From sequence record OQ718158.1: a stretch of DNA of 64,000 bases; one strand, 5' to 3'. Shown piece by piece: positions 1,244 through 62,750 of the stretch; positions within the stretch are counted from its first letter, which is position 1; every line of letters starts with the position of its first letter. The notes under the pieces were generated by a model that was not told the DNA's origin, searched no databases, and saw only the letters and a list, made by a program, of their open reading frames with translations. The translations under genes and the position numbers were made by a program. The stretch is from Escherichia phage vB_Ec-M-J.

Positions 1244-1517
1244 ATCGAATGAAGTACTTGTTGCTGAAACAATGAAGATGGTTTATGCCATAACAACTAG
1301 TAATGATTTGTCTTACCCAATTAAGTCCAAGTTGAGGGATATAACTCTTCAGGTTATACAGCAGTACTACAAATCTAAACACAAAAGTATTATTAATGTT
1401 TATCGTGACTATGAAAGGATTCGCATTTTGTTCTGGAACAAGAATCGAGTTCGTTCGGAATGTGATATAGAAAACTTTAAATTTGAGAATCTTTATTGTT
1501 ACAAAGCGGGACAATAG
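1236..1517 (+). CDS. hypothetical protein
   Basis: ATG at 1236 (MANKS...) with AAGGA RBS; inside track ORF 1215..1517. Confidence 0.45.
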   Translation, partial: ANKSNEVLVAETMKMVYAITTSNDLSYPIKSKLRDITLQVIQQYYKSKHKSIINVYRDYERIRILFWNKNRVRSECDIENFKFENLYCYKAGQ

Positions 1518-1535
1518 CTCAAGTAGTGATATAAT
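1508..1535 (+). promoter_or_regulatory. sigma70-like promoter, extended -10 (GGGACA-N16-TGaTATAAT)
   Basis: -35-like GGGACA 1508-1513, TG 1527-1528, TATAAT 1530-1535; same architecture recurs at 26524 and 48040. Confidence 0.55.
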
Positions 1536-1575
1536 ATTGGGTATGGAACAATAACTAACACAAGGAGTGTGTAAA

Positions 1576-2499
1576 GTGCCAAGTAAAAAGCCAGATTCTG
1601 AAGTATTCAGACTGGTTGATGAAAAATTGAGTTCAATTGGTTCATCGGTAAAAATGGATAGAACAACATACACAACCATATCAAACAAATCAACTTTTTT
1701 CTGTGATGAATGTGGGTTTAGTAAAAATATCATAGTTAGGAATGTGTACAAAAATGGAATATTTTGTCATTGTCCCACATTTAAAACTTTATATAATAAA
1801 TTGGGTGAAATTAATTCAAAATTAAAATTAGATATTTCCACATTCACAACTACAAAAAACAAATCTAGATTTTATTGTGACGATTGTGCGTTTGAAAGAT
1901 ATATGACGGTGCATGATGTTAAGTCTAGAGGTGCATATTGTAAATGTCATTCATTATATTGTATGCCGTTAGATATCGACGAAGCATATAACACTATTAT
2001 GAATAAAATAAAAGATTACTCAAATACAATACATATGGATAAATCTACATACCGTGGTACACAATATAAGGTTAGATTTTATTGTACAGAGTGTAATTTT
2101 GACAAATATATTAATTATAGTAGAGTTAAATGTGGAACTCTTAACTGCAATTGTATCAGACCAATCCCAGAAGAAAGTAAATTATATATTTTAGGAATAT
2201 ATGAACAAAATATTTTAATAAAATATAAAGTTGGTATTTCTACAAAGATTGATAAATCAAGACTAATTAGTATTAGGTCAAAAACTAATTTTATAGTAGA
2301 GGAATTATATTATTTTACTGGAAATACCGAAGTTATTAAAAGTGTAGAATATAATATTTTAAATCTGCTTAAAAATAGTAGTAAATTGTCAAAGGATTAT
2401 TTTGGCGATGGGTATACTGAAACATTTGATTTACAAGATATAAATCTTGTTATTGATTATGTATGTAAATGTTTACTCGAAAATAAATTAAAAATATGA
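1576..2499 (+). CDS. GIY-YIG-like nuclease domain protein with three tandem Cys-rich zinc-ribbon repeats (possible homing endonuclease)
   Basis: Three repeats of F[FY]C[DT][DE]C.F...C.C; C-terminal GIY...YKVGIS with downstream R/E/N; GTG start at 1576 with AAGGAG RBS. Confidence 0.5.
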   Translation: MPSKKPDSEVFRLVDEKLSSIGSSVKMDRTTYTTISNKSTFFCDECGFSKNIIVRNVYKNGIFCHCPTFKTLYNKLGEINSKLKLDISTFTTTKNKSRFYCDDCAFERYMTVHDVKSRGAYCKCHSLYCMPLDIDEAYNTIMNKIKDYSNTIHMDKSTYRGTQYKVRFYCTECNFDKYINYSRVKCGTLNCNCIRPIPEESKLYILGIYEQNILIKYKVGISTKIDKSRLISIRSKTNFIVEELYYFTGNTEVIKSVEYNILNLLKNSSKLSKDYFGDGYTETFDLQDINLVIDYVCKCLLENKLKI

Positions 2500-2524
2500 A
2501 AATCATAAACACAAGGAATGTGAA

Positions 2525-3253
2525 ATGATAGATAATATAAAATTTGCAACAGAAATGGCGAATCAACTCAATATAGCAAATTTTCAAATGTTAACATCTG
2601 TTATGGCTGAACATGCTGCTGCATATTCATCTAGTGGTATACAATGTGGACAAGCTAACATGTTAGCTGATGTTTATAGTGAAGTTCAAAGCAAACAATA
2701 TAGCGTGAAGACATACAAGGATAAGTTCGTAAGTCTTTATATGAATGAAGATATTTCAGAAGACCGCAAATTCACCGATTTTATTATTGAACGCCGTATT
2801 AGTGGGGTTTCAGACCCAAATGCAGAAAGTGATATTGTATTCGATGAGGTATTAAAAGATATATACGAAAATGAATTGAAAAGTAAGAATCATTACAATG
2901 TACGTGAAACTAACACAGTGCTAGTTGGATATGATGAAGACGAACAATATTTCTATTTTCGTATAACAGAAGTTCCATTTGAATATAAAAAACCAACCAC
3001 TACATCTGTAAAAGAATTCACTGAGAAGAGTAAAAACTTCAAGAAACACGAAGGAAACCGTTGTAGTATTAATGGTTATGATGAAAATGGTGTTCATGTT
3101 TATGAATGGGTTTCACCTAATTGCCAGACATACACCCGTTGCTTGAAGAAACGTTATAATTTAGAAGACAATGAATCCTTCTACTTTAAAGTTAAGAAAC
3201 AAGGTTATACTCGCCCTGAAGATTCAGAATTGATGGGTATGGTATATTTCTAA
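2525..3253 (+). CDS. hypothetical protein
   Basis: Track ORF; AAGGAA RBS; leader shares the aacacaaggaRtgtg motif with the 1576 gene. Confidence 0.6.
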   Translation: MIDNIKFATEMANQLNIANFQMLTSVMAEHAAAYSSSGIQCGQANMLADVYSEVQSKQYSVKTYKDKFVSLYMNEDISEDRKFTDFIIERRISGVSDPNAESDIVFDEVLKDIYENELKSKNHYNVRETNTVLVGYDEDEQYFYFRITEVPFEYKKPTTTSVKEFTEKSKNFKKHEGNRCSINGYDENGVHVYEWVSPNCQTYTRCLKKRYNLEDNESFYFKVKKQGYTRPEDSELMGMVYF

Positions 3254-3262
3254 GGAACTGTT

Positions 3263-3544
3263 ATGGATTTTTACCTACACACATGGTCATACGAACAATA
3301 CATTACATTATATCTTGAGATTATTAATACTGATCCCAGATATGGTTGTGATTTCGCTGATATTATAAAAGAGTATGCAGATGAGTTTGAGTTTGTATAT
3401 CTTGGTTCTGAACTATTTGTAAAGAGTGTAGGTAAAACCGGACGCATCACTGAAATTGATTATGATACTGTTAGTGTGAATTTCTATGTTGATTTTCCTT
3501 GTGATGGCGTTGATGGTGTATATTGTCTATATGAAATAATTTAA
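3263..3544 (+). CDS. hypothetical protein
   Basis: Track ORF followed by an intrinsic terminator. Confidence 0.55.
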   Translation: MDFYLHTWSYEQYITLYLEIINTDPRYGCDFADIIKEYADEFEFVYLGSELFVKSVGKTGRITEIDYDTVSVNFYVDFPCDGVDGVYCLYEII

Positions 3545-3551
3545 ATTTTAA

Positions 3552-3577
3552 GGCCAGCGTTTGCTGGTCTTTTTTCG
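3552..3577 (+). terminator. rho-independent terminator
   Basis: Hairpin CCAGC-GTTT-GCTGG followed by a T-run (3571-3576). Confidence 0.6.
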
Positions 3578-61254: not shown

Positions 61255-61266
61255 TAGAGGTATCTA

Positions 61267-61644
61267 ATGGCTGCTCAAAACGTTAAAGTTAAAACTATCC
61301 AAGCTATCGTAGTACTGAAAGATTCCACTCCATCACCAAAAGAACTGGTTATGGCTGGTATGACAATGCTACATCAGTACAATCCAGAATCACCTAACTA
61401 TGTACTGGAATACGAAGCGAAGCAGTTTAAAGAACATTGGCAGTCATGGATTAAAGATAATGAAATGGAACAGGTTGTTTATGCTGCTGATGACATTTTC
61501 GAATTAGAACAAATCGAATATCTAGCAGGACAACAATCTGTACCATTGAGTATCTTCGGTAATGGAGAAGAAGTTTTAGTACTGGGACCATTTACCGCTG
61601 ATGCCATCATGCATTTACTAAGTAATTGTAAAAAAGTTGGCTAA
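61267..61644 (+). CDS. hypothetical protein
   Basis: Track ORF; AGAGG RBS. Confidence 0.5.
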   Translation: MAAQNVKVKTIQAIVVLKDSTPSPKELVMAGMTMLHQYNPESPNYVLEYEAKQFKEHWQSWIKDNEMEQVVYAADDIFELEQIEYLAGQQSVPLSIFGNGEEVLVLGPFTADAIMHLLSNCKKVG

Positions 61645-61855
61645 AAAACAAATATTATCAGGTTACCGTAATAACACGTTGCACTACAATGACTTAAAGT
61701 ACTGGGTTGACCCACACAACAATAAGTCATTGTTGCTGTACAGAGATAAATTTCGAGATTTGTACGGTATATATGACACCCAGTTAATATACTTAGTTGA
61801 TACCGAACATTTTGCTCCTATGGTATACTTGTATTGCTTGTATAATTCCAAATAA
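61637..61855 (+). CDS. hypothetical protein
   Basis: Track ORF. Confidence 0.4.
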   Translation: MAKKQILSGYRNNTLHYNDLKYWVDPHNNKSLLLYRDKFRDLYGIYDTQLIYLVDTEHFAPMVYLYCLYNSK

Positions 61856-61860
61856 CTATT

Positions 61861-61905
61861 AGCACCTCTAAATAATGTATATAAACATTAATGAGGTGCT
61901 TTTTT
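61861..61905 (+). terminator. long imperfect hairpin plus T-run (terminator or RBS-sequestering structure)
   Basis: AGCACCTC (61861-61868) pairs with GAGGTGCT (61893-61900), inner AATGT/ACATT pairing, then TTTTT; the 3' arm contains the GAGG RBS of the next gene. Confidence 0.45.
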
Positions 61906-62697
61906 ATGTCTTACGATTATATGGGTGGAAACCCAGATGCTCCAAACTTTGATCATCGTGAAAAACTGAAAGATGTTATCACTCAAATGTTAGGTGCTGG
62001 TGCAGTTGAAGTTGAAATTACTGATGGTCAATTGGAAATTGCAATTGATAATGCGGTATCAAACTACCGAGCATGGAGTTCTGCTTCAAAAGAAGAAGCA
62101 TTCTTGAACATGAAATTCTATGATTCACAATCTGTATACATGCTTCCTACTGAAGTTGAAATTGTCAAACAGATTTATCGTTATGGTAACGGTTATCTAA
62201 GTTCTGGTAGTGGTAACTCAGTAGACCCTTTTTCACTCGCATTTACCAACACTTACCTTTTAACGTCTGCACGTAACGCTGGTGGTTATGACTTAACTAC
62301 TTATGATTTTAGTTTTCAGTTCCAAGAATTAGTTGGGCGTATGTTTGGTAGAGAAATCATCTTCCAGTTCAACCCAATGACCAAAAAACTAATAATTGAC
62401 CGTGATATTCGTGGTACTGAAGAAGTGCTATTACATGTATATCATAATATACCTGAACCATTGCTATTCCAACGTCAACAAAGCTATCCTTGGCTACGTG
62501 ACTGGGCATTGTCTGAAGCTATGATTATGTTGGGTCGCAACCGTGCTAAATTTGCTACATTGCCTGGACCACAGGGTACATTCTCTATGGATGGTGATAC
62601 ATTACGTAATGAAGGTGCACAACTTCAAGAACAGCTTAAAGAACAGTTGAAGAGATACAAAGATGGTGGTGATCCACTTGGAATGATTATCGGATAA
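61906..62697 (+). CDS. hypothetical protein (possible virion protein)
   Basis: ATG at 61906 right after the hairpin; Gly/Asn/Ser-rich 263-aa product. Confidence 0.5.
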   Translation: MSYDYMGGNPDAPNFDHREKLKDVITQMLGAGAVEVEITDGQLEIAIDNAVSNYRAWSSASKEEAFLNMKFYDSQSVYMLPTEVEIVKQIYRYGNGYLSSGSGNSVDPFSLAFTNTYLLTSARNAGGYDLTTYDFSFQFQELVGRMFGREIIFQFNPMTKKLIIDRDIRGTEEVLLHVYHNIPEPLLFQRQQSYPWLRDWALSEAMIMLGRNRAKFATLPGPQGTFSMDGDTLRNEGAQLQEQLKEQLKRYKDGGDPLGMIIG

Positions 62698-62700
62698 AAC

Positions 62701-62735
62701 AAAAAAAAAGACTCCTATATGGGGTCTTTTTTTAT
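62701..62735. terminator. rho-independent terminator (A-run/T-run flanked)
   Basis: AAAAAAAAA-GACTCC-TATAT-GGGGTC-TTTTTTT. Confidence 0.75.
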
Positions 62736-62750
62736 ATGTTGTGATATAAT
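62723..62750 (+). promoter_or_regulatory. sigma70-like promoter, extended -10
   Basis: TGTGATATAAT with TATAAT at 62745-62750; -35 region overlaps the terminator. Confidence 0.4.

Follow-up and report, generated by a model that had tools for sequence, protein, structure and literature searches.

To our knowledge, jumbo phages of the RaK2/PBECO4 group have no RNA polymerase of their own, yet they carry a conserved sigma factor. The 64,000-nt stretch of DNA analysed here (the window) belongs to a RaK2/PBECO4-like jumbo coliphage with 99% identity to fEgEco12, and a promoter-like motif that recurs along it raises the question of whether these sites form a phage-specific class and which sigma factor would read them.

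The motif, nRGACA-N13-TGnTATAAT, combines a non-consensus -35 hexamer with an extended -10 box and has a spacer of 16 bp between the hexamer and TATAAT. In the whole window it has seven exact matches, compared to 0.04 expected, its enrichment being about 100-fold, and 100 shuffled sequences yielded at most one match to RGACA-N13-TGNTATAAT. All seven sites are on the + (coding) strand and none on the - strand, and all lie in gaps between + strand ORFs, which agrees with the earlier note's count of at least seven intergenic sites. That note also placed the -10 element 16 bp downstream of the hexamer, which holds for the distance to TATAAT, but taken literally (RGACA-N16-TGNTATAAT) it has no match. 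The next ORF starts 28–141 nt away at six sites and 431 nt away at one, where a non-coding stretch follows. The hexamer is GGGACA at four sites, TAGACA at two and GAGACA at one, and the -10 box is, as first described, TGATATAAT at all seven, two of which read TGTGATATAAT. A weight matrix trained on 17 sites in a relative's genome, all outside the region equivalent to the window, returns the same seven sites as its top seven (18.9–21.9 bits), and the next-best match in the window (12.6 bits) is located inside an ORF. A scan of the window with a generic sigma-70 consensus reveals no enrichment (97 observed versus 93 expected), thus only the specific motif definition stands out. The A-richness upstream of the sites is indistinguishable from the 65% A+T background.

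The seven sites, P1 to P7, are all read from the + strand. P1 (1508–1535; 19.8 bits) has the sequence GGGACA-atagctcaagtag-TGATATAAT and is followed about 41 nt on by the ATG at 1576, where a homologue of fEgEco12 g177 starts. P2 (GAGACA-N13-TGATATAAT, 9952–9979; 21.9 bits) precedes an ORF that begins near 10002–10011, and P3 (TAGACA-N13-TGATATAAT, reading TGTGATATAAT, 17609–17636; 21.9 bits) lies 35 nt before the ORF 17671–18366, which is annotated as a protease. P4 (TAGACA-N13-TGATATAAT, 21138–21165; 18.9 bits) has the ORF 21301–21909 136 nt on; a terminator at about 21020–21060 precedes this site, and a TTGACA is found 9 nt 5' of its hexamer. The remaining three all read GGGACA-N13-TGATATAAT. 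P5 (26524–26551; 19.8 bits) is located between a PhoH-like gene and the ORF 26582–26779, and its hexamer belongs to the palindrome GGGACattcGTCCC. The putative target of P6 (48040–48067; 19.5 bits) is a non-coding stretch roughly 400 nt long and not a protein gene, and P7 (59116–59143; 21.1 bits) is flanked by a tRNA nucleotidyltransferase gene before it and a nudix hydrolase ORF (start near 59217–59220) after it. The extended form cGGGACAta, previously ascribed to three sites, is present at 48040 only; 1508 reads cGGGACAat and 26524 reads tGGGACAtt. A doubtful variant, with GGGACA, a 17-bp spacer and TGATATAAT (12174–12202, + strand), is situated inside the ORF 11703–12461; as this is coding sequence, the fact that it is conserved in PBECO4 carries no information. 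The site at 62742–62750 (+ strand), the end of which had been given as the last coordinate of the class, drops out of it, with GGTCTT in place of RGACA, and is listed as an extended -10-only candidate (TGATATAAT); a terminator (62703–62733) lies directly before it and an ORF begins at 62778, 28 nt after it.

PBECO4, which is 76% identical, contains orthologues of six of the seven sites. When the sites are aligned by their -10, 28 of 30 positions match in the -35 hexamer and all positions (100%) in TGATATAAT, compared to about 52% in the 13-nt spacer, the length of which is the same at five of the six sites. The orthologue of P1 keeps GGGACA and TGATATAAT with 8 of 13 spacer positions identical, that of P2 reads GAGACG-N13-TGATATAAT, and that of P3 reads TGGACA-N13-TGATATAAT with a spacer identical at only 4 of 13 positions. 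No orthologue of P4 was found in PBECO4, which has a rearrangement in this region, and at P5 the boxes are kept, the spacer is 1 nt longer and the palindrome is longer as well. P6 and P7 are both conserved, with 7 and 5 of 13 spacer positions identical, respectively. That boxes and spacing are retained in PBECO4 while the spacer sequence decays supports a phage-specific class.

The class also recurs throughout the fEgEco12 genome, with 24 matches on the + strand and none on the - strand, compared to 0.2 expected. TGnTATAAT is present in all 24, and at least 22 of them occupy gaps between genes in the annotation tables, as read by eye. Five of the 24 carry a full TTGACA in the same layout, which indicates that the class grades into canonical promoters. 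Genes found downstream include ssb (two tandem sites), primase, exonuclease, topoisomerase II, Clp ATPase, PhoH-adjacent ORFs, non-coding RNAs and g336, annotated as a putative sigma gene and taken here as encoding a gp55-like late sigma; overall, the set covers DNA replication, nucleotide metabolism and g336. Given the enrichment, the strand and gap specificity, the recurrence in fEgEco12 and the box conservation in PBECO4, the earlier suggestion of a phage-specific class is well founded: the sites are a genuine class of this kind, with a role in transcription that is predicted from sequence.

The terminal repeats of fEgEco12 hold no member of this class. A second class, AAAGTAC-TTGCAA/TTGACA-N16-TATAAT without TGn, lies ahead of arrays of tiny genes and is restricted to the terminal repeats and the 291–324 kb region of fEgEco12, with no member within the window; it looks like the real early class of the phage. 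TGn is found at 19 of 21 non-TT nnGACA sites versus 8 of 42 TTG-type sites (odds ratio 40, p = 5e-8). In the hexamers of the nRGACA class GACA is invariant and TT is replaced by purines, and G is enriched at positions 1 and 2 (p = 1e-4 and 2e-3, against a 19% background), which points to positive selection for purines and not to a mere loss of T.

A candidate reader of these sites is g519 of fEgEco12, a sigma-70-family protein in which Pfam detects regions 2 and 3 and returns no match for region 4. The window does not include its gene, which is known only from 99%-identical relatives; a sigma of the g519 type is present in every relative examined, and the gene is located behind TTGAC-type promoters. 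When compared to host sigma-70, the region-4.2 helix of g519 contains an insertion and altered residues. In a small sample of six phages in three motif groups, compared at orthologous promoters, this helix appears to co-vary with the -35 hexamer. The helix R[ST]S[LI]HR.Y accompanies G(G/A)GACA in fEgEco12 and PBECO4 (E. coli) and in SE_PL (Salmonella), K.TLSRRY accompanies TGAAAC(G/A) in CBB (Pectobacterium) and XaC1 (Xanthomonas), and RGTLHYKF accompanies TTGAACA in RaK2 (Klebsiella). Overall, the SE_PL sigma is closer to that of CBB (45%) than to that of fEgEco12 (37%), yet it has the fEgEco12-type helix and motif. The -35 motif would thus follow the region-4.2 helix of the phage sigma and not the host, which suggests that the phage sigma reads the class.

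The non-coding stretch behind P6 (48100–48490, + strand) is a candidate structured RNA, putatively transcribed from this site, with no long ORF and no Rfam match. In both fEgEco12 and PBECO4 a paralogue follows the sigma gene, and RNAalifold on four sequences yields 70 pairs, 17 of which show compensatory double changes. If the phage sigma does read the class, it would also drive this pair of unclassified structured RNAs of about 400 nt. According to a 2026 review, which names no targets, the sigma factors encoded by this kind of phage 'likely' direct phage-specific promoters (PMC13282480). A more specific reading, to which we give slightly less than even chances, is that the class is the cognate promoter of the 'group 2' jumbo-phage sigma, that it also drives the RNA pair, and that a recognition code between helix and hexamer drifts independently of the host; R-S/T-S-L-H-R would specify GRGACA, K-x-T-L-S-R TGAAACR and R-G-T-L-H-Y TTGAACA.

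The main rival to recognition by the phage sigma is host sigma-70 acting alone. The sites would then be extended -10 promoters without any phage factor, with regions 2.4 and 3.0 reading TGnTATAAT, the partial -35 GACA adding slight affinity, and the weak -35 tuning strength or timing relative to the strong early promoters. Promoters with TGn and a -10 can do without -35 contact, and by the two-of-three-elements rule of E. coli the host holoenzyme should suffice (PMC2988021). Consistent with this, TGnTATAAT is perfect, a 16-bp spacer is workable, GACA matches four of the six host -35 positions, and TTGACA versions of the same layout occur. Furthermore, in our alignment with the sigma-70 sequence the phage sigma appears to lack the canonical TG- and -12-reading residues: E458 is changed to V, H455 is, in fEgEco12 and PBECO4, changed to Y, TT takes the place of the W433/W434 pair, and Q437/T440 are absent. 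In sigma-70, E458 and H455 are the residues that read TG, and a perfect TGnTATAAT specificity in a sigma so diverged would be a coincidence. However, the two T's are among the best-conserved positions of E. coli -35 elements, and an invariant GACA preceded by G-enriched purines in place of TT is the reverse of the host profile. This -35 profile is retained at the PBECO4 orthologues despite the decay of the spacer. The sigma-70 region 4 of enterobacterial hosts is expected to be near-identical, yet relatives that infect such hosts differ in the hexamer at orthologous promoters, and XaC1, on Xanthomonas, has the same hexamer as CBB. We consider recognition by host sigma-70 alone rather unlikely, although it deserves to be kept in view.

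Sigma appropriation as at T4 middle promoters, in which host sigma-70 reads TGnTATAAT and a phage DNA-binding activator, perhaps aided by an AsiA-like protein that remodels region 4, reads the hexamer, would account for the architecture and the downstream genes, both of which match T4 middle promoters (PMC2988021), and a hexamer that differs between lineages is what a co-evolving phage protein would produce. We judge it improbable, as no AsiA or MotA homologue was detected in the six-frame ORFs of fEgEco12 or of the window (phmmer --max with the T4 proteins, of single-sequence sensitivity only; best E = 0.48–2.7), the element differs from a MotA box in sequence and in its distance from the -10 (16 bp instead of 12±1 bp), and the data are already explained by the conserved phage sigma, whose altered region 4.2 co-varies with the hexamer. 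A non-promoter repeat involved in recombination, packaging or protein binding, which nothing specific favours as only one hexamer (26524) falls in a small palindrome, is very hard to reconcile with two boxes at fixed spacing around a free spacer sequence, a 24 to 0 orientation on the coding strand 30–140 nt ahead of start codons, and a -10 identical to the best-known promoter -10.

The sequences directly show the motif with its enrichment, strand and position, the conserved boxes and spacing, the second, early-looking class, and the co-variation of hexamer and helix; the timing of the class and the identity of the sigma that reads it are inferred. The proposal that the sites form a second, lineage-specific class, 'middle' or delayed-early in function, read by the phage sigma, stands in our view at about even chances, and the class probably marks genes turned on after the earliest ones. 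In the cascade envisaged, the host sigma-70 RNA polymerase would use TTGACA/TTGCAA-N16-TATAAT in the terminal repeats and at 290–325 kb, and this early phase would yield the clade-wide phage sigma-70-family protein (g519 in fEgEco12). Having joined the host core polymerase, g519 would read G(G/A)GACA through its remodelled region 4.2 and, 16 bp downstream, TGnTATAAT through its regions 2 and 3, which would switch on the replication, nucleotide-metabolism and RNA genes together with the putative sigma gene g336. The g336 product, if gp55-like, would then serve late promoters of the ATAAATA type, and three sigmas and three promoter classes could be mapped one to one. No transcriptome or transcription start site data for the RaK2/PBECO4 clade were found in the literature searched.

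Such a sharply defined class offers a concrete and cheap handle on the promoter choice of the phage sigma, and a map of prereplicative transcription units that helps to annotate these 350-kb genomes, which are poorly characterised. Should host sigma-70 prove to be their only reader, the sites would still represent a tidy case of extended -10 promoters whose non-consensus -35 is under selection.

Among known systems, the T-even early promoters, to which the class had been likened, share TGn, a consensus -10 and additional phage-specific conservation. T4 early promoters have an excellent -35 and UP elements and serve immediate-early genes (PMC2988021), whereas here TTG occurs in none of the seven window hexamers, the targets are metabolic and replication genes, and the small-gene arrays of the terminal repeats use the other class; the likeness is superficial and lies in TGn and the perfect -10. 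E. coli extended -10 promoters likewise have TG one base before TATAAT and a sub-consensus -35. We know of no conserved non-consensus hexamer among the host examples, whereas the present class has an invariant GACA and selection for purines at positions 1–2. In phage sigma cascades (Bacillus SPO1 gp28, phiEco32 gp36 and gp79, T4 gp55), an early phage sigma redirects the host core. The sigmas of SPO1, phiEco32 and T4 recognise -10 elements unlike that of the host, whereas the -10 of the present, predicted class is identical to the host consensus. phiEco32 provides an E. coli example of such a cascade (PMC12276001).

The class appears more similar to T4 middle promoters and to the 'divergent RpoD-like' promoters that have been predicted for two other jumbo phages, CBB and GAP32 (PMC5259590), than to T-even early promoters. 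It shares with T4 middle promoters a stringent sigma-70-type -10, a frequent TGn and a phage-specific element at -35, as well as its placement before genes for replication, recombination, nucleotide metabolism and late-transcription factors. The T4 MotA box, (a/t)(a/t)(a/t)TGCTTtA, is centred at -30, 12±1 bp from the -10 (PMC2988021), whereas the element here, which is not a MotA box, is at the normal -35 distance, and a full sigma-70-family protein is encoded in place of a detectable MotA/AsiA pair. CBB and GAP32 belong to the same clade, and their promoters also combine a classic TATAAT with a non-TTGACA -35 element before DNA-synthesis genes; a canonical RpoD-like early class and a late class of the ATAAATA type occur beside them. 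Promoters of this kind are already predicted for related phages; in PBECO4/fEgEco12-type coliphages it is undescribed, the word 'promoter' being absent from the fEgEco12 and Sharanji papers. The -35 is G(G/A)GACA here and TGAAACG in CBB/GAP32, a consensus from which the present sites depart, and the extended -10 is TGA here and TGTGG there. In fEgEco12, RaK2 and CBB alike, the class is found upstream of five corresponding genes (ssb, primase, exonuclease, rnh and a small ORF after nrdB), and the difference in hexamer is lineage-level variation within one class.

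The window has a G+C content of about 35% and carries nearly all of its genes on the plus strand; by megablast, it belongs to a jumbo myophage of E. coli. Across a 6-kb segment (window 36097-42139), megablast identity is 99% to fEgEco12, Ecwhy_1 and relatives and 76% to PBECO4 (Asteriusvirus), and the phage belongs to the RaK2/GAP32/CBB clade. Position 98654 of fEgEco12, the relative used for genome-wide analysis, corresponds to window 36097. The genes are hypothetical for the most part, accompanied by nucleotide and DNA metabolism functions, with ligase, polynucleotide kinase, dCMP deaminase, anaerobic RNR, thymidine kinase, PhoH and CCA-adding enzyme among those named. 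In fEgEco12 the homologue of window 56021-56353 (+) carries the name 'putative sigma 54', yet Pfam assigns the product to Ribosomal_S30AE (E = 3e-10), which makes it a ribosome hibernation factor of the HPF/RaiA type rather than a sigma; for the 'transcriptional regulator' at 7057-7386, Pfam returned no match. In addition, the opposite strand at 34812-36002 carries an ORF of 396 aa in which Pfam detects RCC1 repeats (E = 4e-10). It is an insertion that separates the anaerobic RNR activase gene from the gene that follows, where the fEgEco12 gap is only 77 nt; similar 'chromosome condensation regulator' genes form an array at 330-349 kb of fEgEco12.

The earlier note proposed a recurrent promoter class, nRGACA followed by an extended TGnTATAAT -10. 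Taken literally, with 16 nt ahead of the TG, the pattern has no match in the window, and the spacing was therefore redefined as 16 bp between the two hexamers. In this form (RGACA-N13-TGNTATAAT) the seven-site motif is borne out, with seven exact matches against 0.04 expected (-35 hexamers at 1508, 9952, 17609, 21138, 26524, 48040 and 59116), all on the plus strand and all within gaps separating plus-strand ORFs. The next start codon lies 28-141 nt downstream, except at 48040, which is followed by about 430 nt without an ORF. By itself, TGNTATAAT occurs 17 times, 16 of them on the plus strand, compared to 7.8 expected. A weight matrix trained only on 17 fEgEco12 sites, all outside the region equivalent to the window, ranks the same seven sites at the top (18.9-21.9 bits), and the next match is intragenic and scores 12.6 bits. 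A generic sigma-70 TTGACA/TATAAT scan of the window returned no enrichment (97 vs. 93.4 expected), and such a scan is uninformative in DNA this rich in A+T. Two details of the earlier description did not hold, as only one of the three sites said to share cGGGACAta reads so, and 62742 is not a full member, possessing TGATATAAT without the RGACA hexamer. Terminators, recognized as a strong hairpin with a T-run, also occupy many window gene gaps (3545-3588, 8323-8371, 21020-21060, 47238-47267, 49636-49656, 52899-52917, 56362-56389, 60409-60432 and 62703-62733), several with GGGAC...GTCCC stems; terminator-like sites are enriched at 44-64 kb (14 vs. 7.9 expected), and together with the seven promoters the terminators split the window into short transcription units.

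When the whole fEgEco12 record was assembled and its 353,740 unique bases were scanned, nnGACA-N13-TGnTATAAT was found 24 times on the plus strand and never on the minus strand, against 0.2 expected, and according to the annotation tables at least 22 of the 24 matches are intergenic. Among the genes downstream are ssb/gp32 (two tandem sites), primase, exonuclease, Clp ATPase and the putative sigma gene g336, other sites precede PhoH-adjacent ORFs, nudix ORFs and non-coding stretches, and topoisomerase II has a TACAAT variant upstream. G is present at hexamer position 1 in 13 and at position 2 in 11 of the 24 sites, compared to a 19% background (p = 1e-4 and 2e-3), and C occurs at neither position in any site. 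Some of the best-conserved -35 T's of the E. coli host consensus lie at these two positions, which indicates that the -35 element is more than degenerate and that purines are selected. Two further fEgEco12 sites deserve mention. The annotated start of g336 overlaps the promoter GGGACA-N13-TGCTATAAT at 190988 (190974-191022), which makes a start further downstream probable. A plus-strand member at 195695-195722 has a minus-strand gene on either side, pointing to a transcript that is antisense or has escaped annotation.

A second, canonical class is cleanly separated from this one in fEgEco12. The 21-kb terminal repeats (1-21000 and 353740-374733, outside the window) contain no member of the TGn class, and most of their approximately 45 tiny genes have their own near-identical promoter, AAAGTAC-TTGCAA/TTGACA-N16-(g)TATAAT-gTTTTACATC, none with TGn. 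A G+C-rich 5'-UTR hairpin typically follows (e.g., GGGGAGAAatgaTTCTCCCC), and these units recall the promoter-early stem-loop modules known from T4-type phages. A few further copies are located at 291-324 kb. A 17-bp spacer for this early-looking class gave almost no matches; its spacer is also 16 bp, and spacer length is therefore no separator. The classes are instead distinguished by TGn and the first two hexamer bases, since TGn accompanies 19 of 21 non-TT nnGACA sites vs. 8 of 42 TTG-type sites (odds ratio 40, p = 5e-8).

The protein that might recognize the TGn class is gp519, the clade's sigma-70-family protein encoded by fEgEco12 g519. Pfam detects its sigma-70 regions 2 and 3 and does not detect region 4, and among PDB entries it matches group 1 and 2 sigmas best (E = 1e-17 to 1e-13). 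By tblastn it is present across the clade, with identities of 99.7% in Ecwhy_1 (MH791411 1665-2630), 59% in PBECO4, 39% in RaK2 and 37% in CBB/GAP32. The fEgEco12 paper lists gp519 as absent from Ecwhy_1, which is contradicted by the 99.7% match, and this claim is thus unusable against a phage-sigma model. The TTGAC-type promoters upstream of g519 in fEgEco12 fit early expression. Alignment of region 4.2 reveals an insertion of 8-10 residues and an altered recognition helix, and six aligned orthologues form three helix/hexamer groups. R[ST]S[LI]HR.Y is paired with G(G/A)GACA in fEgEco12 and PBECO4 (E. coli) and in SE_PL (Salmonella; sites TTGGGACA/TTGAGACA, 17-bp spacer), K.TLSRRY with TGAAAC(G/A) in CBB (Pectobacterium) and XaC1 (Xanthomonas), and RGTLHYKF with TTGAACA in RaK2 (Klebsiella). 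The SE_PL sigma is overall closer to that of CBB (45%) than to that of fEgEco12 (37%), and its region 2.4 is also CBB-like, whereas its region-4.2 helix and its hexamer are both fEgEco12-like. Within these six phages and three groups, the pairings suggest that the hexamer tracks the phage helix, and neither the host nor how closely the sigmas are related overall. There are three promoter classes and three sigmas (host, g519 and g336, the last presumably gp55-like), and the simplest mapping assigns the TGn class to g519. Judged from sequence, a phage-sigma cascade may read this class, with roughly even chances.

Reading by host sigma-70 alone is possible though doubtful. In sigma-70, by established accounts, E458 and H455 read the TG, W433/W434 wedge the duplex, and Q437 and T440 read -12; in an alignment with E. 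coli sigma-70, the phage proteins have V and Y/H, TT, and M/Q and Y/H/T at these respective positions, and such differences speak for the host enzyme. So does the full TTGACA present in 5 of the 24 fEgEco12 sites, and the co-variation of helix and hexamer, limited to three groups, lowers confidence in the phage sigma. Furthermore, the -10 matches the host extended -10 exactly, and TGn/-10 sites should be usable by host holoenzyme unaided (PMC2988021). Reading by a MotA-like activator is improbable, as homologues of T4 MotA and AsiA were not detected in either fEgEco12 or the window. The promoter class is of value because it opens the target of the clade's sigma factor to direct testing.

PBECO4 holds orthologues for six of the seven sites in the window; site 21138 has none because its region is rearranged. 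With the -10 as anchor, all six have an identical TGATATAAT, and the -35 hexamer is identical at 28 of 30 positions in the five sites of equal spacing (GGGACA is kept in four, GAGACA becomes GAGACG, and TAGACA becomes TGGACA). Identity within the 13-nt spacer falls to about 52% (4/13 to 10/13) while its length is retained at five of six sites, and the flanks, which are coding or contain ribosome-binding sites, are 81-85% identical. A fixed distance between two boxes with a freely drifting spacer is, at the sequence level, the signature of a two-element promoter, and that the elements are not promoters is very improbable.

Two of the sites are associated with additional features. The -35 hexamer at 26524 is half of a palindrome, GGGACattcGTCCC (26524-26537), which is retained and longer in PBECO4 (GGGACATaATGTCCC) at the cost of a spacer 1 nt longer, and which could be an operator or an RNA/DNA hairpin overlapping the promoter. 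Directly downstream of 48040, about 400 nt (48100-48490, +) are poor in ORFs, with a paralogue at fEgEco12 307110-307560 (L008:30540-30960) behind a similar promoter, just past the sigma gene, and both are kept in PBECO4 (L010:11900-12510 (-) and L014:1650-2060). For the four sequences, RNAalifold predicts a long-range closing helix and 70 pairs in all, of which 17 show compensatory double changes. Rfam has no match in the window, nor at a relaxed threshold on 48040-48720, which makes this a candidate new structured RNA family.

With regard to known promoters, the earlier note was right to propose a phage-specific class, while the suggested T-even early likeness gives way to a middle type. T4 early promoters combine UP, -35, TGn and -10 elements with excellent -35 matches, and T4 middle promoters have a stringent sigma-70 -10, half of them with TGn, and a phage element in place of the -35, and serve replication, recombination and nucleotide-metabolism genes and late-transcription factors (PMC2988021). 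The present class is similar to the latter in layout and downstream genes, but it lacks a MotA box and its element is 16 bp from the -10, compared to 12±1 bp in T4. The paper library searched contained no promoter analysis for the PBECO4/fEgEco12 group and no transcript mapping within the RaK2/GAP32/CBB clade; for PA5oct, a distant phage, TTGAC/TATAATA motifs were reported from RNA-seq. For CBB/GAP32, three classes have been predicted in silico, an RpoD-like one in a small-ORF region also holding a sigma gene, a 'divergent RpoD-like' one that precedes DNA-synthesis genes and combines a classic -10 with TGAAACG at -35, and ATAAATA upstream of structural genes (PMC5259590). In five upstream regions compared across fEgEco12, RaK2 and CBB (ssb, primase, exonuclease, rnh and the small ORF after nrdB), the -35 is G(G/A)GACA in fEgEco12, but GGAAAG before rnh, TTTGAACA in RaK2, and TGAAAC(G) or TGGAATG in CBB. 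The class is the counterpart of the 'divergent RpoD-like' class, and a lineage variant of one that in-silico work on related jumbo phages had predicted.
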